The translations under genes and the position numbers were made by a program. DNA of 64,000 nucleotides from Candidatus Saccharimonadota bacterium (lineage in GTDB: Bacteria; Patescibacteriota; Saccharimonadia; Saccharimonadales; SZUA-47), in contig CP065013.1 in assembly GCA_016700315.1 (NCBI GenBank), positions 705,449 to 769,448 of the forward strand, written 5' to 3'. Shown here piece after piece: positions 1,949 through 33,134 of this stretch. Every line of letters starts with the position of its first letter. Position 1 is the first letter of the stretch. Under the pieces are notes generated by a model. The model was not told the DNA's origin, searched no databases, and saw nothing but the letters and a program-made list of their open reading frames with translations.

Positions 1949-3574
1949 ATGCAACCGAAAAAAGATACAATTTATCTCGAAGCCGAGGACGAAATAACAA
2001 CCGTTATCGACAAGCTTCAGTCGGCTAAAAGCAATGTTGTGGCTCTGGTTTTACCAAAACAGGCTAGCGTTTTTCAGAGTGTGGTGAACATGAAACTTTT
2101 GATGAAGGCGGCGAAGAGGTCCAAGAAACAGCCAGTCCTGGTCACCTCCAATCAGTCGATTATCAAGTTAGCTGGCTTAAGCGGAGTTCCCATAGCAAAG
2201 TCGCTATCATCAAAGCCGGAGGTTCCGTCAAGCGACCAGCTAGACGGCGAGAGCGAAACGCCGGCTAAAATAGTTGAAGAGGCAGTTGTGGCCGATGCGG
2301 CCGGAAATGCAGCTGTCGCTGAAGTGGTCGCCGAACCCGACACGATTGAGCTCGACAACACCTCGCCTAAAGGGTTACCAATAACTGATAAAAAAATCGG
2401 CAAAAAAGTTATTAAAATCCCCGATTTCTCCTCATTCAGAACTAAAGTAGTTTTGTTTTGTATGCTGTTAGTACTAGCTATCGTTGGTTCAGTTTTTGCC
2501 TTTGTGATCTTGCCCAAAGCGACAATCATCGTAAAAACCGACACAAAATCTGTTTCAGCTGATTTGCAAATCTTAGCCAGCACTGCAGCGACAGAAATGG
2601 ACCAAGCGAACAGCGTAGTGCCGGCAGAGTTAGCCGAGTCTGCAAAATCAGATAGTGAGGTTGCACCAGCAACTGGCACAAAAAACATTGGCGAAAAAGC
2701 CAGCGGCACCATGACGATTGTTAATTGCAACAAAGACGATGAATCAATCACAGCCCCAGCCGGAACCGTTTTTAGCGCTGGTGGCTTTAACTTTGTTACC
2801 ACTGCCCCAGTTACTGTTGCTGCCAGCAACTTCACTGGTGGTGGGCTATGTAAACGCGACAAATCGGCTAGCGTGGAAGTTGCAGCCAGTGAGCCTGGCG
2901 ATAACTATAACTTAACCGCGAGATCATATTCTACGACCAACAGTGATCTTTCGGGTAGTGGATCAGCCATGACAGGTGGAACGAATAATGTAGTAAAAGT
3001 AGTCACCGCCGCTGATATATCATCCGCCAAAGATCGACTAGTTGGCAGGTCAAAAAGTGCTGCACTAGATGAGATAAATTCTAAGCTAATCAGTTCGAAC
3101 AAAAAGCCTTTGGAGCAAACTCTTGAAGAAGGAGAGCCGAAAGTTGAGGCTAGTGTTGCAGCCGATTCCCAGGCTGAAAGCGTTAAAGTTACGGTGACCA
3201 CGGTTTATAAGATGCTCGGTGTTAAACAAGAGGATCTAAAAGCACTACTTGAAATGTCTATCAAGAAGGCTGCTGGCGAAAATCAGCAAAATATTCAAGA
3301 TGATGGTCTGTCAGCTGCAAATTACTTATTAATAGAGAAAAAATCAGTTACCGAACAAAAAATTTCACTAAAAACAATTGCGACGGTAGGGCCGAAAGTC
3401 GACGAAGTAGAAATTGCAAAACTGTCTGCCGGCAAAAAACGTGGCGATATCGAGCAGCTTTTAAGAGCCAAGGAAGGTATTCGTGATGTGACGGTTGAAT
3501 ACAGCCCTTTCTGGGTTCTAACAACTCCAAAAAGCGCCTCAAAAATAAAAGTTGTGCTGGAGCAGACGCGCTAG
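1949..3574 (+). CDS. large single-pass membrane protein, unknown function
   Basis: 541-aa ORF. One hydrophobic segment (VVLFCMLLVLAIVGSVFAFVIL) follows an acidic/Ala-rich linker. TATAAT at 1937-1942 lies 6 nt before the ATG. Confidence 0.7.
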   Translation: MQPKKDTIYLEAEDEITTVIDKLQSAKSNVVALVLPKQASVFQSVVNMKLLMKAAKRSKKQPVLVTSNQSIIKLAGLSGVPIAKSLSSKPEVPSSDQLDGESETPAKIVEEAVVADAAGNAAVAEVVAEPDTIELDNTSPKGLPITDKKIGKKVIKIPDFSSFRTKVVLFCMLLVLAIVGSVFAFVILPKATIIVKTDTKSVSADLQILASTAATEMDQANSVVPAELAESAKSDSEVAPATGTKNIGEKASGTMTIVNCNKDDESITAPAGTVFSAGGFNFVTTAPVTVAASNFTGGGLCKRDKSASVEVAASEPGDNYNLTARSYSTTNSDLSGSGSAMTGGTNNVVKVVTAADISSAKDRLVGRSKSAALDEINSKLISSNKKPLEQTLEEGEPKVEASVAADSQAESVKVTVTTVYKMLGVKQEDLKALLEMSIKKAAGENQQNIQDDGLSAANYLLIEKKSVTEQKISLKTIATVGPKVDEVEIAKLSAGKKRGDIEQLLRAKEGIRDVTVEYSPFWVLTTPKSASKIKVVLEQTR

Positions 3575-3577
3575 TTT

Positions 3578-3973
3578 ATGGATATTTTGGCGCTAGATTT
3601 TGGTAGCAAAAAAATTGGTCGAGCTAGGGCAAATTCTGTGGTGCGCATTCCAGAGCCTCTACCTATTTTTCAGAATCTCAATAATCAAAATCTGGACAAA
3701 TTGTACGAGGAAATAATTGTGCAAAAACCTGCAAAGGTGTTAGTGGGGTTGCCTAGAAGCCTCGCTGGCCAAGAGACGGAGCAGTCAAAAATCATAAGGC
3801 AATTTACCAAACAACTAGCCGCCAAAATTCAGTGCCCAGTTGAGTTGGTTGACGAAACCTTGAGCACCCAGTCGGCCGCTAAGTGGAGCGTAAGGTATCC
3901 TGGTTCAGATGAAGATAGTCTGGCTGCTTGTGTTATTCTAGAACGTTATTTTGAGGAAGGCTCCGTAACCTAA
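3578..3973 (+). CDS. ruvX: YqgF/RuvX-type putative pre-16S rRNA nuclease / Holliday junction resolvase-like protein
   Basis: 131 aa. ILALDFGSKKIG...VLVGLPRSLAG..TEQS...F...L pattern typical of the YqgF family. Confidence 0.85.
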   Translation: MDILALDFGSKKIGRARANSVVRIPEPLPIFQNLNNQNLDKLYEEIIVQKPAKVLVGLPRSLAGQETEQSKIIRQFTKQLAAKIQCPVELVDETLSTQSAAKWSVRYPGSDEDSLAACVILERYFEEGSVT

Positions 3974-5016
3974 TGCATAGCATTATGACGAATAATCGCC
4001 GTCAACTTCTGCCTAGATTAATCGCTGGCATTCTCATACTAGTATTTTTATTACTTGGTTATATTGGCTTCACATATTATGGCAATTTAAGGCCGGTAAG
4101 CATGTCCGAAAAAGTTGTCATAGTAGAAATAGCACCTGGCTCCGATAATTCTAGCATCGCTGAAAAATTGCACTCTAACGGCTTGATAAGGGACAGCCGC
4201 GCCTTCTTATGGTACCTTAAACTTCATAAGGATACCCAGCCCAAAGCCGGGAGTTATAAGCTTAGCCCGAGCATGAGCGTCGAAGACATAGTAAAGTATC
4301 TTAACGAAGGTAAGGTTGCGACCGATCTATTCACTATTTTCCCTGCTCAGCGCATCGATCAGATCAAGGCTGCATTTATCGATGCTGGCTACCCTTCTGA
4401 TCAAGTAGCCGCCGCTCTAGACCCTAAGCTTTATGCTAGCCATCCAGTCTTTACTGGTATCCCACTGCCATCAAATCTTGAGGGCTTCTTGTATCCCGAG
4501 AGCTTCTTTAGGTCGTCAGATGTTACGCCGCAAACCATCGTCAAACAATCGTTAGATGAAATGGCTAAAGCCCTAACACCAGAAATTCGTTCTGGGATCA
4601 ATGCTCAAGGTATCACCATTTATCAAGGAATAATACTGGCTTCAATTATTCAGCAAGAGGTAAGCAACCCCGAGGACGAGGCCCAAGTTGCACAGGTATT
4701 CTATTTGAGGTTAAAAAAAGGCATGCCGCTTGGCAGCGACCCAACGGCTTTTTATGAATCCCGAGCGGCTGGACAGCCCGATTCCGTCTTCGCTAGCTCG
4801 CCATATAATACTAGGATTAATGCCGGGCTCCCGCCTACGCCAATTGGCAATGTCAATCTGGCCGCGCTAAAAGCCGTGGCGTACCCTGCACAAGGAGATT
4901 TTCTCTATTTTGTAGCCGACGATAACGGTGCCGACAAGGGCAAAACGTTTTTCTCTCGTACTTTAGCTGAACACGAAGCGTTGACACAGGAGCACTGCGT
5001 TATCCTCTGTAATTGA
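3973..5016 (+). CDS. mltG: endolytic murein transglycosylase MltG (YceG family)
   Basis: 347 aa. N-terminal TM segment, then YceG-like blocks (LEGFLYPESF, ASIIQQEV, SPYNTRINAGLPPTPIGN, LYFVADDNG...FSRTLAEH). Confidence 0.85.
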   Translation: MHSIMTNNRRQLLPRLIAGILILVFLLLGYIGFTYYGNLRPVSMSEKVVIVEIAPGSDNSSIAEKLHSNGLIRDSRAFLWYLKLHKDTQPKAGSYKLSPSMSVEDIVKYLNEGKVATDLFTIFPAQRIDQIKAAFIDAGYPSDQVAAALDPKLYASHPVFTGIPLPSNLEGFLYPESFFRSSDVTPQTIVKQSLDEMAKALTPEIRSGINAQGITIYQGIILASIIQQEVSNPEDEAQVAQVFYLRLKKGMPLGSDPTAFYESRAAGQPDSVFASSPYNTRINAGLPPTPIGNVNLAALKAVAYPAQGDFLYFVADDNGADKGKTFFSRTLAEHEALTQEHCVILCN

Positions 5017-11236: not shown

Positions 11237-11328
11237 ACAAACAGTATAGCGTAGTAAATTTGTAAAATTTTATTGAAAACCAGGCTTACGAGGAGTATCC
11301 TAGCCTTAGATAAAGGGAGAAATAAAAA

Positions 11329-15130: not shown

Positions 15131-16717
15131 ATGAAAATAAACATTATTAAAAGGGTGAAAAATTTATTCTTTGCTCTAGCTCTAATACTGCCAACTATTT
15201 TTGTAGTTGCCCCTGCCGGTGCAGTTGCTACACCGTTCATTACGACTTGGAAGACTGATAACGAAGGCGTGACTGCGCCCAATCAGATTGCTATTCCAGT
15301 TAATCCGGCTGAGAGCTACGATTACACCGTTAGCTGGGGTGACGGTAGCTCTGATTCAAATGTTAACGGGTCAATTGTGCATACTTATGCTTCGCCCGGC
15401 ACGTACACCGTAAAAATTAGTGGGCAATTCCCAAGGATTTATTTTGCTGATGGCGGCGATCGAGCGAAGATCTTGAGTGTTGTGCAGTGGGGTAGCATTG
15501 CCTGGTCATCTGGCGAAGCGGCATTCAAAGGAGCGACCAATCTGGTGATAAATGCTCGCGACGCTCCAGACCTAACTCGTGTCAAAAGTCTAACCTACAT
15601 GTTTCAAAATGCAAAATCTTTAACAGGTGGGGTTGAAAACTGGAATGTTGCCGGTGTGGAGGGCTTTGGTTATATGTTTGCAGGGGCGACTAATTTTAAC
15701 GCAAACATCAGTGGCTGGAATATGAGCAGTGCCGTTAATACGGAGTACATGTTTTCTCAGGCAGGTTCGTTCAACCAAAATATCAGCGGTTGGAACACTA
15801 GTCGACTGGGAAATGCTAAGGGAATGTTTTTTGGTGCCAGCTCGTTTAATCAATCCCTCAACAATTGGAACCTGAGTCGGGTTTTCAACGTTGAAGATAT
15901 GTTTCGTAATGCTGCCGCTTATGACCAATCAATATCGAAATGGAATATTGGCAATATAACCTACATCTCACGCTTACTTAATGGTTCCACGCTATCCACA
16001 AGCGCCTATGACCAAATGCTAGACACTTGGGCAACGAATCAAACAGCCAGCAATGTAGTATTCGATGCAGGTAGGAGTATGTATTGTACATCAGCCAGTG
16101 CTCGGGATCATTTGATAAACAAGCTAGGCTGGAAGATAACTGATGGTGGAGCAGACAACGTTTTCTGTGGCGGTGTCGATGTTAGCTTTGTTAGTCTACC
16201 AGCACTGAAAGAAAACCAAGCAGCTGGGTCGTTGGTAGGAAAACTCTCAGTGAATTCTAGTCTCGGTAGTAATTTCGATATATCAATCTGCCCAAACAAC
16301 CCTTCCGATAGCAGATTCTTCGAGTTAAATAATTCTAATCTCTACACTAAGCGGAGCTTTGATTATGAAACTCCGCTAGATGAGAACAAGGACAACTATT
16401 ACGAAGTGTGTATAAAGATAACCAGCGCAAGTACCGGAGCTTCCATACAAAAGTATGTCTTAGTTGGTGTTGGTGATACGGCGGATACTGATCAGCAGGC
16501 AGGCGGGGTGGGCAGTGGTAATGGCGGTACGGGGCAAGTACTTGGAACGTCAACAGCAGAAGCGTCTACCAAGCCTTCGGCCAGCAATTCCACGGGTAAG
16601 GTGCTTGGTGCTACCGGAGTGGCTGTGGGATTAGCCGGAATCTACTATGGACTGAGCTTGACCAGTTTTGGCCTTGTCCTGAAGCGCCGCCCTCGACGCC
16701 ATAAAAGGTACGAGTAA
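15131..16717 (+). CDS. surface protein: BspA-type (DUF285-like) repeats plus a cadherin-like domain and a C-terminal LGATG sorting signal
   Basis: 528 aa. Signal peptide, W..GDGS...H.Y...G.Y.V.I.G head, repeated F.GA..FN..IS.WN units, cadherin-like block (ENQAAGSLVGKL...FDYE). C-terminus is LGATG (16604-16618) followed by a hydrophobic stretch and an RRPRRHKR tail. Confidence 0.8.
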   Translation: MKINIIKRVKNLFFALALILPTIFVVAPAGAVATPFITTWKTDNEGVTAPNQIAIPVNPAESYDYTVSWGDGSSDSNVNGSIVHTYASPGTYTVKISGQFPRIYFADGGDRAKILSVVQWGSIAWSSGEAAFKGATNLVINARDAPDLTRVKSLTYMFQNAKSLTGGVENWNVAGVEGFGYMFAGATNFNANISGWNMSSAVNTEYMFSQAGSFNQNISGWNTSRLGNAKGMFFGASSFNQSLNNWNLSRVFNVEDMFRNAAAYDQSISKWNIGNITYISRLLNGSTLSTSAYDQMLDTWATNQTASNVVFDAGRSMYCTSASARDHLINKLGWKITDGGADNVFCGGVDVSFVSLPALKENQAAGSLVGKLSVNSSLGSNFDISICPNNPSDSRFFELNNSNLYTKRSFDYETPLDENKDNYYEVCIKITSASTGASIQKYVLVGVGDTADTDQQAGGVGSGNGGTGQVLGTSTAEASTKPSASNSTGKVLGATGVAVGLAGIYYGLSLTSFGLVLKRRPRRHKRYE

Positions 16718-16916
16718 TTATCAACTCGGTTAAGTCGAAAGCTGTTTAAAACGTTAGCATTTTTGAAAATTTTGTGCTACAATCTTTTTAGTGTGATAAA
16801 AATCACAAACTAAAATTTAAAAGGAAAAAGAAAAGTATCTCTTATGCACAAGCAGCGTTACGTACTTTCGGTGTTCACCTACGACACGATCAACAGCTAA
16901 ACAAAAAACAAATCGC

Positions 16917-17930
16917 ATGAAAAATCATGCCCGAGCTCTACGGAGCAATTATCAAACCTTTACAAGGCGCAGCCATCGCCTCAATCCACAGTTGCGCAGG
17001 ACTTTGTTTGGCCGAAAATTAAGTGAGCTAAAAAGCGAAGAAAACGCCAAACTTTCATCAGATTACGAACAAGACATTGATCGTTTCATAGATCTAGTTT
17101 CAGAGCTTGCCCCGAAAACTATCAATATTACCAAAAACGTCGCACCCCGTAGATCACTTTTTAAGCGTACGATAGCTAGCCCTTATCATCACAAAAATCG
17201 TGAAATTCGTTACCAACCAAAAACGGTGGATCAAAAAGCTGAATCTCTGATAAAGCGCCGCAAGAGTAGCCAAAGAAAACTGAATTATAGACATACGCGC
17301 TTAAAATTGTCAGCAGCCTTCGCAGTTCTTCTGATTGTTGCTACGTCTGGTTACTTCTTTAACGCCAAACATTCAAACCGCTCACTACTTAGTCGTCTGT
17401 ATCCTACTCTATCTAGTGTGAATGGTCCCCCAATCGACATATCAGCTACACCGGCAGTATTGGGTGCAAACATCGAGCCAAAGAATCCTGACAGGGTTCC
17501 TTCAACACTTAACATACCTGCACTAGGCATGTCGGCTGCTATCGAACCAGTAGGAGCGCATGAAAACGGCACGGTCGGTCAGACTCAAGATCGGCGCAAA
17601 GTAGGTTGGTATATGGGAAGCGCGCCAACTAATGCTAATTCGACTGTTCTACTGGTCGGGTATCGTTTTGGTGACACACCCATTTTCTCGAAAATTGATC
17701 AGCTCAAGACAGGCGATGTGATCGAGGTACGAAATCACGGTGGAGATAGTAAGTGGTACAAAATACAGACGATTGACTTCTACGCCGCAAAAGACTCGCC
17801 ACTTTACCGACTAGTCACAGAGAACCAAGGCGAGAGCCTGGTAATTGCCTCAAATAATGGTGTTTGGGACGATTATAAAAATCAGTTTAGTGAAAGGATT
17901 ATTATCGTTTCTAAACCCGTAGACAATTAG
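16917..17930 (+). CDS. sortase-fold (class E/F-like) membrane protein with non-canonical active-site residues
   Basis: 337 aa. Basic N-terminal region, one TM segment, then LNIPALGMSAAIEPVG...VGWY...VLLVGYRF...GDVIEV...WYKI...LVIASNNG...ERIIIV. This aligns with sortase blocks, but with Tyr249 for the His and Ser312 for the Cys. Arg327 is retained. Confidence 0.7.
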   Translation: MKNHARALRSNYQTFTRRSHRLNPQLRRTLFGRKLSELKSEENAKLSSDYEQDIDRFIDLVSELAPKTINITKNVAPRRSLFKRTIASPYHHKNREIRYQPKTVDQKAESLIKRRKSSQRKLNYRHTRLKLSAAFAVLLIVATSGYFFNAKHSNRSLLSRLYPTLSSVNGPPIDISATPAVLGANIEPKNPDRVPSTLNIPALGMSAAIEPVGAHENGTVGQTQDRRKVGWYMGSAPTNANSTVLLVGYRFGDTPIFSKIDQLKTGDVIEVRNHGGDSKWYKIQTIDFYAAKDSPLYRLVTENQGESLVIASNNGVWDDYKNQFSERIIIVSKPVDN

Positions 17931-21262: not shown

Positions 21263-21448
21263 AGCAAGCTCCTCCTAATAGGCCTGCTTAATTATTAATA
21301 TGTTAGATAGTTTTTGTTTTTTTGCTTATCATTACTTGCCTCGATAAGCTAAGTTTTTGGCCGCCTCATTATTTTGTAAATATGTCTACAATTTTACATC
21401 TATAAAATTGCGATGTCAAGACTTTTTAAGAGGTGTATAATACTAAGG

Positions 21449-22306
21449 ATGAATACTAAAGAGCAAAAGATTATTCTCTATTATAAATTCACTCCCGTTA
21501 AAGACCCAGAGATGACAATGCGCTGGCAGCGGGAGCTGTGTCTACGGTTGGGGCTTAAAGGTAGAATTTTGATAAGTCCTCATGGTATCAACGGTACGTT
21601 AGGTGGCGAAGTTGAAAGTCTTAAGTCATACAAAAAAGCCATGAACGAATCAGTTATTTTCCGGGGTATTACTTACAAATGGAGCCAGGGCGGACTGGAA
21701 GATTTTCCAAAGCTGAAGGTCAAAGTAAAACCTGAAATTGTGGCATTTGATGCCGCCGACGAGATAGTGGTGAGCGAAAATGGTATCGAAAACGGCGGTA
21801 AACACCTCAAGCCAGCCCAAGTTCACAAGCTGATAGAGGAAAGAGGCGACGACGTCATATTTTATGATGGACGCAACAAATACGAAGCTCAGATTGGTCG
21901 CTTCAAAAACACTATTGTGCCCGACACCGTCACAAGCCGAGACTTCAAAAATGACCTCGAAAATGGAGAAATAGCCAATTACAAAAATAAGCCGATAGTT
22001 ACTTATTGTACGGGCGGAATCCGCTGCGAAATCTTGAGTGCTATGATGAAGAATCGCGGCTTTAAAGAGGTCTATCAGATCGATGGCGGCATAGTGAAGT
22101 ACGGCGAAAAGTTTGGCGACGATGGTCTATGGGAAGGCAAACTTTTTGTTTTTGACGACCGTATGAAAATGGGTTTTAGCCCAAAGGCCAAAGACATAGC
22201 TAGTTGCGAAACGTGTGGTGCCAAGACCAGTAATCAGGTTAACTCTACCAATATCCGCCGCAAACTACATGTAATTTGTGAAGATTGCACAAGTAAAGTC
22301 GCTTAA
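21449..22306 (+). CDS. trhO: rhodanese-domain protein of the TrhO/YceA (UPF0176) family
   Basis: I prefer the ATG at 21449, because TATAAT at 21436-21441 lies inside the longer ORF call. ILYYKF...ISPHGINGTLGG N-domain, rhodanese Cys loop YCTGGIRCE, C-terminal Cys cluster. Confidence 0.8.
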   Translation: MNTKEQKIILYYKFTPVKDPEMTMRWQRELCLRLGLKGRILISPHGINGTLGGEVESLKSYKKAMNESVIFRGITYKWSQGGLEDFPKLKVKVKPEIVAFDAADEIVVSENGIENGGKHLKPAQVHKLIEERGDDVIFYDGRNKYEAQIGRFKNTIVPDTVTSRDFKNDLENGEIANYKNKPIVTYCTGGIRCEILSAMMKNRGFKEVYQIDGGIVKYGEKFGDDGLWEGKLFVFDDRMKMGFSPKAKDIASCETCGAKTSNQVNSTNIRRKLHVICEDCTSKVA

Positions 22307-22405
22307 TAACTATCAGGCCGTCAAATTATTGCTGATTAGTTAATATAGTTATAGAATACCAATAATTGGCTAAAACAAACTCAACTCAGCCATTAAGGAG
22401 TAAAA

Positions 22406-22844
22406 ATGGGGATGATAAATTCACTAAGTAGCAAAAAGTTTTCTGTAGGCGCGGCTGCTACTTTAGGTCTTGGCTTGTGGGGGGGGTAGTGCTTATGAAA
22501 GGGGTGGCGAGTATCTGGAGCGTGTGCCAGTAGTTATGGTGGCGGATGCTCATGACATAGTCGTTATTAATCTAGGCAGAGCAATAGTTGGTCTCGGCAA
22601 ATTTGTAGATAGCGCACTTACTGGCAATGGCAATGATGAAGACACTAAAAAAGCTGTTGGCCATAAGCCTTCCAACGGTAAGGATAGCGGATTACAGACA
22701 CCAGAAATTGGCGAAAACTGGATTAATTTTTTGCAAACTGATTTCGGTATGTCGCGAAGTAAAGCCCTAAAATGCTACAGGGCAAATAAATTGGCGAGTA
22801 AGGTGCTCGTTTTTGGTGAGCAGTACGATAATCCATGCAATTGA
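22406..22844 (+). pseudogene. small secreted/membrane protein gene split by a G8 tract (frameshifted or phase-variable)
   Basis: An AAGGAG Shine-Dalgarno sequence and the ATG at 22406 encode MGMINSLSSKKFSVGAAATLGLGLWGG, stopping at 22487. The 124-aa ORF continues in the +1 frame from the same G run. Loss of one G would fuse the two. Confidence 0.5.
22479..22486 (+). repeat. homopolymeric G8 tract
   Basis: Read directly: tgtGGGGGGGGtag. Confidence 0.95.
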
Positions 22845-22871: not shown

Positions 22872-24491
22872 ATGCCAAGCCATGCGCTATTAGAAAAGTT
22901 CAAAACGTTACCCGCTAGCAGCGGAGTATACTTCCATAAGTCGGCAAGTGGAGAAGTTATATATGTCGGCAAAGCGGCGGTGCTTAAAAATAGAGTCAGA
23001 CAGTACTTCCAAAATTCCAGAAACCGTGATCCGAAAACCGAAGCACTAGTCTTGGAGATTACTGATACAGACTGGATTGAGACGCAGAGCGAGATCGATG
23101 CACTCTTTTTAGAAGCAGAGATGATTAGGCGCTATATGCCGCGCTACAACATATTACTGCGCGATGATAAATCTCTTAGCTACGTTAGAATCGATCATAA
23201 ATCAGAAGTGCCTACTGTTGCGTTCACTAGGCGTCCATTAGACGACGGTGCAGAGTATATCGGTCCGTTTGTGAACGGTTGGGCGGTACGAAGGGCACTT
23301 AAATATCTGCGGAGGGTATTTCCCTATTTCGGCAAACAGTCATCAGTAAACAGTTATCAACTAAAAAGTAAATTGCCCGAGCAGATCGGCCTAGAACCAA
23401 AAGTGAGTAGCCCCGAAGAGATTAAACAGTACAAAGCTAATCTCAAAATGCTTGCAAAGTATATGCGAGGAGAAAAGGTTGACCTAACTAAGCAGCTTGA
23501 GCGGGAAATGAAGCTTGCAGCCCGCGAACAACGTTTTGAGGAAGCTGCGTATTATCGAAACCGTTTGAGTGCTATGAAAGGCTTAGGCAAACAAATTATT
23601 TTTTCTGATCGAGAGTTTCTGGATTTATCAAAAGACGAAGGCCTCAATGGGCTGGCTAGTTTGCTCGGTTTACAGAAGCCACCACGTCGAATCGAGGGTT
23701 TTGATATTTCTCATATGAGCGGCACAGACACTGTCGCGAGTATGGTCGTGTTTGAGCAGGGCATTCCAAATAAGGCGGCTTACAGAAAATTCAAAATGAG
23801 ACTGCCGGGAAACGACGATTTTGCTCACATGCGCGAAGTTATAACTAGAAGACTTAGCGAAAAACATGTCAAAGATTGGGGCTTGCCGAACCTATTGCTG
23901 ATTGATGGTGGTAAGGGGCAATTGGCCGCCGCCCTAGAGGCTCGCGAAACATTAATAAATAATACCATAACACATCTTAAAGTTAATCCATCAACCCAAA
24001 ATAACAGAGACAAAACTACTTTCCAAGGACTATCCTTGGAGTTTAGTCAAGTGCCGATGATTGGGCTTGCTAAGAAAGAAGAAGAGATTGTCATAAAGAA
24101 ACAAGATGAAAGATTAGGGATTGACGAAGAACAGCTGATATTAAAGGCAAGGGCTATGCGAGCTCTGGTTCGGGAAACAGAAGATTTTATTATGATTGGT
24201 CTACCCCATGAATCGCATATCGTTAAGCTCTTGCAGCGGATCCGCGATGAAAGTCATCGTTTTGCCGTTTCATATCATTCAACACTCAAGCGCTCGCGGC
24301 AGACCAGAAGCTGGCTAGAGGAAGTGCCAGGCATTGGCCCGACCCTAAAGAAAAAGCTTATCAAAGAATTTGGATCGGCAAGAGGAGTGGAACAGGCTCG
24401 AGATTTTGAGCTAGACAAAATCTTAGGTGAAAAACGTGCCTCGATACTAAAACAATATATGCGAGCAAACCGAAAGCTTGACAGTAAATGA
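22872..24491 (+). CDS. uvrC: excinuclease ABC subunit C
   Basis: 539 aa. GIY-YIG N-terminus (GVYFHK...GEVIYVGKA...L..R), UvrB-interacting region, Endo V-like domain (IEGFDISH) and C-terminal HhH. TATAAT at 22860-22865 lies 6 nt before the ATG. Confidence 0.93.
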   Translation: MPSHALLEKFKTLPASSGVYFHKSASGEVIYVGKAAVLKNRVRQYFQNSRNRDPKTEALVLEITDTDWIETQSEIDALFLEAEMIRRYMPRYNILLRDDKSLSYVRIDHKSEVPTVAFTRRPLDDGAEYIGPFVNGWAVRRALKYLRRVFPYFGKQSSVNSYQLKSKLPEQIGLEPKVSSPEEIKQYKANLKMLAKYMRGEKVDLTKQLEREMKLAAREQRFEEAAYYRNRLSAMKGLGKQIIFSDREFLDLSKDEGLNGLASLLGLQKPPRRIEGFDISHMSGTDTVASMVVFEQGIPNKAAYRKFKMRLPGNDDFAHMREVITRRLSEKHVKDWGLPNLLLIDGGKGQLAAALEARETLINNTITHLKVNPSTQNNRDKTTFQGLSLEFSQVPMIGLAKKEEEIVIKKQDERLGIDEEQLILKARAMRALVRETEDFIMIGLPHESHIVKLLQRIRDESHRFAVSYHSTLKRSRQTRSWLEEVPGIGPTLKKKLIKEFGSARGVEQARDFELDKILGEKRASILKQYMRANRKLDSK

Positions 24492-26807: not shown

Positions 26808-27179
26808 ATGAACAGGTTTGGTAAATTTGCTTTGCGCTGGTTGGTTTGCAGTCTGGGTTTGTGGATTGCGGCTAATCTGTTGGGCGGTGACCGGATTAAC
26901 TATCAGGACAGCTTTCGGGTGATGATGACTGCTGGGCTAGTTTTGGCCCTGATAAATACCTTTATCAAGCCTCTGATTGTTTTTTTGAGTCTGCCGGCAG
27001 TTCTCCTTACTCTGGGTATTTTTATGGTTGTGATAAACGGCCTCACAGTGATGTTGGCTGCTCATTTTTACTCAAGGCTAGAAGTTGCTGATTTTGTTAG
27101 TGCAATGCTGGCTGGAGTTGTAATAGGATTAGTAAACTTTTTTGTAACCGGGTTAATTGAGGAGGAAAAATATGAGTAA
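26808..27179 (+). CDS. small 4-TM membrane protein (DUF360 / holin family IV-like)
   Basis: 123 aa. Pattern ...NTFIKPLIVFLSLP...LTLGIF..VING... typical of the YvlD/DUF360 family. Confidence 0.65.
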   Translation: MNRFGKFALRWLVCSLGLWIAANLLGGDRINYQDSFRVMMTAGLVLALINTFIKPLIVFLSLPAVLLTLGIFMVVINGLTVMLAAHFYSRLEVADFVSAMLAGVVIGLVNFFVTGLIEEEKYE

Positions 27180-27387
27180 ATGGTTTGTAATTAGTGTTGT
27201 ATCAGGGCTTTTGATGATTGTCTTAATTTTGCTACAAACAAGAGGCGCCAGTCTGGGCGCTGGACTTGGCGGCGGCGGCGAAGTCAACACCGTTAGGCGC
27301 GGTTCCGAGGCATCAATCTTCAAGTTAACGATAATCCTTGCAGTTATTTTTGTGTTTTGCATCTTAGCAGGAATTGTTACTTCCTAA
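27172..27387 (+). CDS. secG: preprotein translocase subunit SecG
   Basis: I prefer the ATG at 27172 with a GGAGGA Shine-Dalgarno sequence. 71 aa, two TM segments flanking a Gly-rich loop (LLQTRGASLGAGLGGGG). Confidence 0.75.
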   Translation: MSKWFVISVVSGLLMIVLILLQTRGASLGAGLGGGGEVNTVRRGSEASIFKLTIILAVIFVFCILAGIVTS

Positions 27388-27420
27388 GATTAGTCTGGGT
27401 GGGATCTATTATAACGATTT

Positions 27421-32239: not shown

Positions 32240-32369
32240 GCTCTAGACCTCTGACCGTAGTCCTTAGGCCCTAGTATGCTGTTAGTTAATTAGTATTTTT
32301 TGTAGCTAGACAATAAACATTTTAGACACCACAAGCAGCGTGCTATGGTCTAAGGGCTAAAGACTAGTG

Positions 32370-33134
32370 TTACTTAAGTCCGTCTTTGGACATGAACTTT
32401 TTCATAGCATCCACGGTGTCCATAAATTGGGCAGGGAAGATGATTGTGCTGTTTTTTTCGACTGCTATCTCACTCATAACCTGTAGGTTTCTGAGCTGGA
32501 GTGCGATTGGGTGGGCCGCAATGATATCGGCAGCTTCCCCAAGTTTGGCGGCAGACTGGGCTTCACCCTCGGCGGCAATAATTTTGGCTCGTTTCTCACG
32601 CTCGGCTTCGGCTTGCTTGGCCATAGCGCGCTGCATAGTTTCGGGAAGGCGTATGTCTTTTAACTCAACTGTACTGACATATATACCCCACTTCTCGGTA
32701 GCGGTGTCGAGAATCGCTTTGATCTTTTCGTTGATAGTAGAAGTTTCACTGAGCACTTGGTCGAGAGCACACTGGCCGATAACATTTCGAACAGTAGTTT
32801 GGGCAATTTGGTAGGTCGCAGATACAACGTTACTAATTTCGACGAGCGACTTGGTGGCATCTACAACCTGGTAATATGCAACCGCTGCTACGTCGATGCT
32901 GACGTTGTCCTTCGTAATAATCTGCTGACTATCTACAGGTAAAGTAATGATACGCATGTCGACCTTTTTCATCTGGTCGATAAAAGGGATGATAACCCTG
33001 AGCCCCGCCTCTTTTGGGGTGGGCTGTACCCGTCCCAGGCGAAAAACCACACCTCTTTCAAACTGGTTGACTAGCCTAAGCCCCATAAGCACCGCGATAA
33101 CAAATAGCGCTATCAGAAACCACACAAAACCCAT
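32370..33134 (-). CDS. SPFH/band 7 (stomatin-like) membrane protein
   Basis: 254 aa. N-terminal TM segment, then the SPFH core (...TKDNV.I.VDAV.YYQV.D...) and an Ala/Glu-rich coiled coil ([17 protein letters not shown]). Confidence 0.9.

Follow-up and report, generated by a model that had tools for sequence, protein, structure and literature searches.

A G8 run that splits a small gene upstream of uvrC in a Saccharimonadales genome is G7, with the gene intact, in 33 related contigs

In the 64-kb stretch of DNA analysed here (the window), a run of eight G residues (G8; positions 22479–22486, plus strand) stands immediately before a stop codon and divides one small gene between two reading frames. 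A split of this type may represent a switch operated by changes in tract length, a one-off frameshift that has disabled the gene, or an error in the consensus sequence, and the question raised by this locus is which of these applies.

The 5′ part of the gene (22406–22489, plus strand) lies 5 nt downstream of a Shine–Dalgarno sequence, AAGGAG (22395–22400, plus strand), and consists of 27 codons (MGMINSLSSKKFSVGAAATLGLGLWGG) from the ATG at 22406 to a premature TAG at 22487–22489. It runs from an n-region with KK through a Gly/Ala-rich hydrophobic segment (FSVGAAATLGLGLW) to GG, and the G tract occupies codons 25–27 of the gene. The Shine–Dalgarno sequence, the 27-codon frame, its stop and the G run had been reported in an earlier note, and each was found again on direct reading. 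The same is true of the 124-aa ORF at 22470–22844, which is in the +1 frame relative to the ATG and continues the gene through the G run. In this frame, the 3′ part of the gene (22488–22844, plus strand) corresponds to S28–N145 of the intact protein and ends with TGA at 22842–22844. No separate ribosome-binding site precedes it, and its product is identical to residues 28–145 of a database protein, P0002. When other tract lengths were substituted in silico, G7 gave one continuous protein of 145 aa and G10 one of 146 aa (the earlier note had expected about 146 aa), and G6, G8, G9 and G11 put the gene out of frame and truncated its product. In these in silico frames, a change in tract length toggles the full-length product on or off, as phase variation requires.

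The ATG at 22406 is supported as the start because the N-terminal sequence MG(M/V/R/K)(I/L) is conserved in four of the five lineages of the protein family described below, the exception being the protein of locus L046, which begins with MSRI. A lipobox-like VLAC in the +1 frame was set aside as a coincidence, as a stop codon precedes it and there is no signal peptide. Scans for promoters and terminators around the small gene returned matches at chance level only.

As a bare sequence feature, the G8 run is within chance expectation. No other run of G or C in the window exceeds 6, and at least one G8 was present in 29 of 100 dinucleotide-preserving shuffles of the window, in which 2.3 G7 matches per shuffle are expected by chance. 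The run is meaningful because comparison with other assemblies shows that a real gene is interrupted.

Loci for this comparison were fetched via exact-protein look-ups, and the 37 loci recovered represent 33 distinct contigs, each from a different run or sample, which are 94.9–99.95 % identical to the window. Scanning two further contig collections, which do not hold this species, for the locus irrespective of tract length gave no match. All 33 contigs have G7, in the codons TGG GGG GGT, and the Trp-Gly-Gly encoded by them forms the end of the hydrophobic segment. The tract was the only gap in all of the blastn comparisons except those with L102 (14 gap openings), L106 (2) and L117 (3). Over 1,963 bp, contig L008 differs from the window by the one G alone, and the change is therefore very recent. 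L102 (JGI 3300045333) is from a more divergent strain (94.9 % identity) and has G7 and an intact 145-aa gene. The order of genes common to the related loci is an ABC transporter (minus strand), UPF0176/rhodanese, the small gene, uvrC and a prephenate-dehydrogenase-like gene. Two of these served as syntenic anchors, namely the upstream neighbour encoding a UPF0176/rhodanese-family protein (21413–22306, plus strand; Pfam UPF0176_N, Rhodanese and Rhodanese_C), which was found in all of the related loci, and the downstream neighbour encoding UvrC (22872–24491, plus strand; Pfam UvrC RNase H domain, UVR and GIY-YIG).

Protein records agree with the contigs. When the G7 product was searched against 5.8 billion proteins, one cluster was matched (145 aa, 99 % identity, full length), and the exact G7 product, P0002, is recorded in JGI, ENA and Logan data. 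In-frame products, of 145 or 143 aa, come from at least 67 contigs among the members listed, and G8-type products from two records. Exact look-ups among 15 billion proteins found no product of G4, G6, G9 or G10, and no G8-type truncation on any other allele background; among the products searched, G8 is confined to the window's own allele. As the 33 other assemblies have G7 and an intact gene, the eighth G is a one-off slip, whether in the DNA or in its sequencing; it does not demonstrate an on/off switch.

Nine DNA alleles of the gene, taken with the frame fused, differ by 9 synonymous and 9 nonsynonymous polymorphisms. The resulting pN/pS of 0.29 therefore points to purifying selection on a single frame that runs through the tract. 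The small gene is real, and its normal state is G7, with a predicted product of 145 aa. The family to which it belongs comprises five clusters and is found only in Saccharimonadales. An exhaustive HMMER search of 1.84 billion cluster representatives recovered only two credible relatives, P0016 (153 aa, 36 % identity) and P0018 (147 aa, 31 %), and a profile search added only the proteins of loci L028 and L046, which had already been found upstream of uvrC. The P0016 gene is syntenic, lying directly 3′ of the rhodanese gene in locus L114. In the orthologues of L028, L046 and L114, runs of G or C are all shorter than 5.

These findings bear on whether the interrupted gene is read as a single protein after all, from a real G8 template, via +1 ribosomal frameshifting at GGG-TAG or via transcriptional slippage. 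The logic of the sequence permits this, as a slippery G run stands directly before the stop codon, a +1 shift would lead back to precisely the G7 protein, and re-pairing of a P-site Gly-tRNA on GGU would yield the same W-G-G-S junction. However, programmed sites are conserved, and here the G7 strains all use a single frame and the distant orthologues have no tract; neither the shift site nor the two-frame arrangement is conserved in the orthologues, which distinguishes this locus from prfB-type programmed +1 frameshifts. No stimulatory element with proper spacing is evident. Because the protein lies in a single frame in every other strain, recoding is disfavoured and we consider it highly improbable.

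UvrC was used as an anchor to examine the setting of the gene more widely, and 80 Saccharimonadales loci were fetched. Nearly all of the 80 UvrC matches have titles naming Saccharimonadales/Saccharibacteria or Patescibacteria, two being labelled as other bins. Among GTDB species representatives, the highest UvrC identity is about 61 %. In most of the 80 loci, a rhodanese-sized ORF (~280–300 aa) ends directly at uvrC, which makes the small gene an insertion into this slot that is restricted to its lineage. The rhodanese–uvrC junction is a variable slot in Saccharimonadales (L012–L091, at ~3000–4000 in each locus) that is empty in most species. In some it holds unrelated genes for 174–183-aa proteins, five of which are similar to one another (L013, L016, L018, L077 and L082); further junction genes of this size are found in L017, L071 and L072. 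In the species with P0016, the small gene is followed by a P63C-domain gene and an IS1595-type zinc-ribbon gene (L114, 3648–5050).

All members of the family share one layout, with basic residues and a hydrophobic segment at the N-terminus, a Gly-rich, poorly conserved linker and a C-terminal module. The window protein has KK at residues 10 and 11 and the hydrophobic segment followed by GGS-A, with its hydropathy peak at residues 12–24. The N-terminal hydrophobic segments of the homologues are stronger and stand at the same place, for example with VHG-AP in L046. Judged from these N-terminal features only, the 145-aa protein is probably exported via a signal or anchor segment. The earlier description of the product as a signal-peptide protein is hence plausible, and the N-termini of the homologues add support for a segment of the signal or anchor type. 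The linker of the 145-aa protein is Gly/Asn/Asp-rich and predicted to be disordered.

The C-terminal module, delimited by alignment, has ~45 residues within residues 92–145 (22680–22841, plus strand). In the family alignment, G102, W105, L109, G114, C123, L129, P143 and C144 are invariant. AlphaFold2 modelled the module alone with confidence (pLDDT 90.3, pTM 0.73), in the order beta-alpha-alpha-beta, whereas the full-length model was poor (pLDDT 45), making a fold search from it meaningless. The best full-domain Foldseek matches of the module, with TM-scores of 0.51–0.54, were LysM/CBM50-type chains, and no match had an E-value below 1. The homologue in L046 scored 17.6 bits (E = 0.0037) against Pfam LysM, for which the cut-off is 20.9, and the window protein, P0016, P0018 and the L028 protein had no match to this Pfam family. 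Comparison with an ad hoc LysM set using hhalign gave a probability of only 4 %, and a search of PDB sequences with the family profile found nothing. Resemblance to LysM/CBM50 (PF01476, which includes small secreted LysM effectors) thus lies in a ~45-residue module with a confidently predicted beta-alpha-alpha-beta order, in the pattern G[DE]xW..(F/I)L ... G ... L ... P, which is reminiscent of LysM, and in the position of the module after a flexible linker at the end of a small, probably exported protein. The differences are that the window protein has no Pfam match, that one homologue is below threshold, that the structural matches are not significant, and that C123 and C144 are invariant here, which is not a general feature of bacterial LysM. 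We therefore refer to the module as LysM-like in its predicted fold, with membership of the LysM family unproven.

Outside the window, G8 is known from two protein records. P0003 (124 aa, MACGGGSAYERGG...) comes from one Logan contig of 2,102 bp, and its N-terminus, MACGGGS, demands exactly G8. Logan contigs are built solely from k-mers seen at least twice per run, and this contig may not be independent of the window's genome. P0008 is QQS64664.1, a 106-aa call with a GTG start from a Candidatus Saccharibacteria bacterium MAG at NCBI. The truncation of this call implies G8 in the MAG, which is very probably the window's own genome. Look-ups with 285-aa and 297-aa rhodanese calls recovered no further G8, only contigs that have G7 or stop short of the tract.

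It may be that the organism has G7 and an intact gene, the eighth G being a base-calling or polishing error that splits the gene only in the record. We regard this as possible, and as the most serious competitor of a real mutation. The G7 of all 33 other contigs, including one otherwise identical to the window, is what such an error would leave. QQS64664.1 belongs to a single contig of 988,272 bp from an uncultured Saccharibacterium, as would be typical of Nanopore-based circular MAGs, and homopolymer indels persist in long-read MAGs of this kind: polishing still leaves R9.4.1 assemblies with indels that break up gene calls (PMC9262707), and a pipeline for activated-sludge MAGs included only one Illumina Racon round (PMC8012365). 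The window resembles these cases in that, in a probable long-read circular MAG, a difference of one base in the longest G run fragments a gene call. The position of G8 in the window's longest G run, where a consensus error would fall, also counts against a real allele.

The remainder of the window does not have the character of an error-prone consensus. The whole 64 kb was screened for other ORFs split at homopolymers and none was found, and its other coding sequence shows no errors of this type; two candidate frameshifts restorable at homopolymers, at 11324 and 51656, proved to be ordinary gene boundaries. Over 13.2 kb, the window differs from contig L118 by 15 SNPs, and the tract is the only indel. 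Over 20.4 kb shared with L117, a 53-kb short-read contig, the differences amount to 79 SNPs, the tract and two further indels of one base each, and 45 of 47 long homopolymers are of equal length in the two. The only other homopolymer that differs is intergenic (32296–32301), with T6 in the window and T5 in L117. The second indel is one base at 32371, within the minus-strand ORF at 32370–33134 and close to its 3′ end, and a SNP-rich patch (32296–32371) surrounds the end of this ORF. In addition, the Logan contig is a second record with exactly G8, and G8 would be an insertion where the more usual error is a deletion. R9 reads usually under-call long homopolymers and rarely over-call them, and an over-call is what an erroneous G8 would be.

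A second frameshift is on record for the small gene. A run of A6 within it (22647–22652, plus strand) is A7 in the metagenome contig L106 (JGI sample 3300045388, 1032–1038) and A6 in the window, L002, L008, L092 and L102. The A7 truncates the product to 84 aa (P0011). This site is ~60 bp from the end of the 1,094-bp contig, and an assembly error is possible. As an independent +1 homopolymer frameshift, it fits with occasional, tolerated loss of the gene.

We favour the extra G as real because the Logan contig also has G8, the window is otherwise clean and the gene is frameshifted again in L106. The reading we prefer, at roughly even odds (a probability of about 0.5), is that G8 arose by a single +1 slip at a hotspot and is a real, if local, null allele. 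Slipped-strand mispairing as the DNA replicated would be the likeliest source of the G added to the G7 run, and translation from the ATG at 22406 would then stop after 27 codons. As the remainder of the gene lacks a separate ribosome-binding site, the allele would be null, and would be carried by one local population or strain. Such a change would be a sporadic hotspot mutation that another slip could in principle revert, and not a switch in regular use. We infer both the presence of the extra G in the DNA, beyond the consensus, and the null phenotype. A null allele in the majority in one population has a low prior, given that none was seen in 33 assemblies elsewhere.

The earlier note had put forward a phase-variation switch beside a pseudogene and a sequencing error, and had suggested comparing tract length across related strains and looking for further G or C tracts. 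Its anatomy stands and the switch fails the suggested comparison, leaving a one-off frameshift allele and a consensus error. Under the switch, the tract would be a selected site of slipped-strand mispairing, ON at G7 or G10 and OFF at G8 or G9, that controls a surface or exported and perhaps peptidoglycan-binding protein of an epibiont, with the window caught in the OFF state. Genes of this class are expected to switch reversibly and often within a population, at roughly above 1e-5 per generation. A G run of at least 7 in the 5′ coding region reaches the cut-off used in screening for phase variation (poly-G/C ≥7; PhasomeIt, PMC6321876), and a tract of 7 bp can switch reversibly, as in glpK of Mycobacterium tuberculosis (PMC10334774). 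The protein is probably exported, and strains that have diverged by up to 5 % have kept G7. Of the glycine codons in the genome, GGG is the least used (12 %), so that codon usage does not favour the tract.

Tract length does not vary, however, with G7 in 33 of 33 related contigs and no product of another length (G4, G6, G9 or G10) among 15 billion proteins. For comparison, 92 % of core phase-variable groups in Campylobacter vary between members (PMC6321876). Orthologues in other species lack the tract, the 64 kb contains no second G or C run of at least 7, and a single G7 in 64 kb is no more than chance would give. The rate of +1 slippage in a 7G tract was only ~3e-8 per generation in a mycobacterial assay (PMC10334774), and a tract at the cut-off length may be an inefficient switch, the authors of PhasomeIt noting that such tracts may be too stable for effective switching (PMC6321876). 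Regular phase variation is thus not supported: there is a repeat and it affects the frame, but neither variability between strains, nor a tract in orthologues, nor further loci were found. We consider a selected switch unlikely. A more specific version, in which a small exported LysM-like protein that would contact the cell wall of the host bacterium is switched at low frequency and this population was caught OFF, is a shade less likely again.

The comparison with known poly-G/C phase-variable genes (Campylobacter, Neisseria, Helicobacter and Bordetella, and glpK) leads to the same view. The likenesses are a G run of 7–8 in the 5′ coding region of a gene for a probably exported protein, a product that ends after the signal segment upon a +1 slip and would be restored by a –1 slip, and slipped-strand mispairing, which is presumably common to both. 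The differences are the lack of length polymorphism in 33 assemblies, the absence of the tract from orthologues of other species, the absence of any sign of a multi-locus phasome in 64 kb, and a tract at the bottom of the mutable range. Whether it came about by strand slippage or by base-calling, G8 is an ordinary +1 event at a homopolymer. It resembles the OFF state of a poly-G phase-variable gene, and the locus does not qualify as one. A literature search found no paper linking Saccharibacteria with homopolymer phase variation. If the switch were true, it would, on that search, be the first repeat-mediated phase variation described in the Patescibacteria phylum, and the A6 to A7 frameshift in the other sample would mean recurrent selection to silence the gene. 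Real length heterogeneity in reads would suggest that on/off selection acts on a host-interaction protein of an uncultured epibiont, which would be of moderate interest for the biology of CPR bacteria and their hosts. A single homopolymer frameshift in a MAG is no basis for proposing phase variation without cross-sample or read-level evidence.

For annotation, we recommend that the 27-codon ORF and the 124- or 106-aa 'hypothetical protein' be treated as one frameshifted gene, the intact form of which encodes a 145-aa, probably exported protein. An uncharacterised, lineage-restricted protein that is predicted to be exported and to end in a LysM-like module is mildly interesting for epibiont biology.

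Two further features of the window were noted, with Pfam labels taken from a syntenic contig. At 15131–17930, a gene for a 528-aa DUF285 protein is followed directly by a sortase gene, and the two may be a surface protein and its sortase. At 26808–27400, a 123-aa ORF of the Phage_holin_4_2 family overlaps the start of a 71-aa SecG gene, an odd pairing for a reduced genome.
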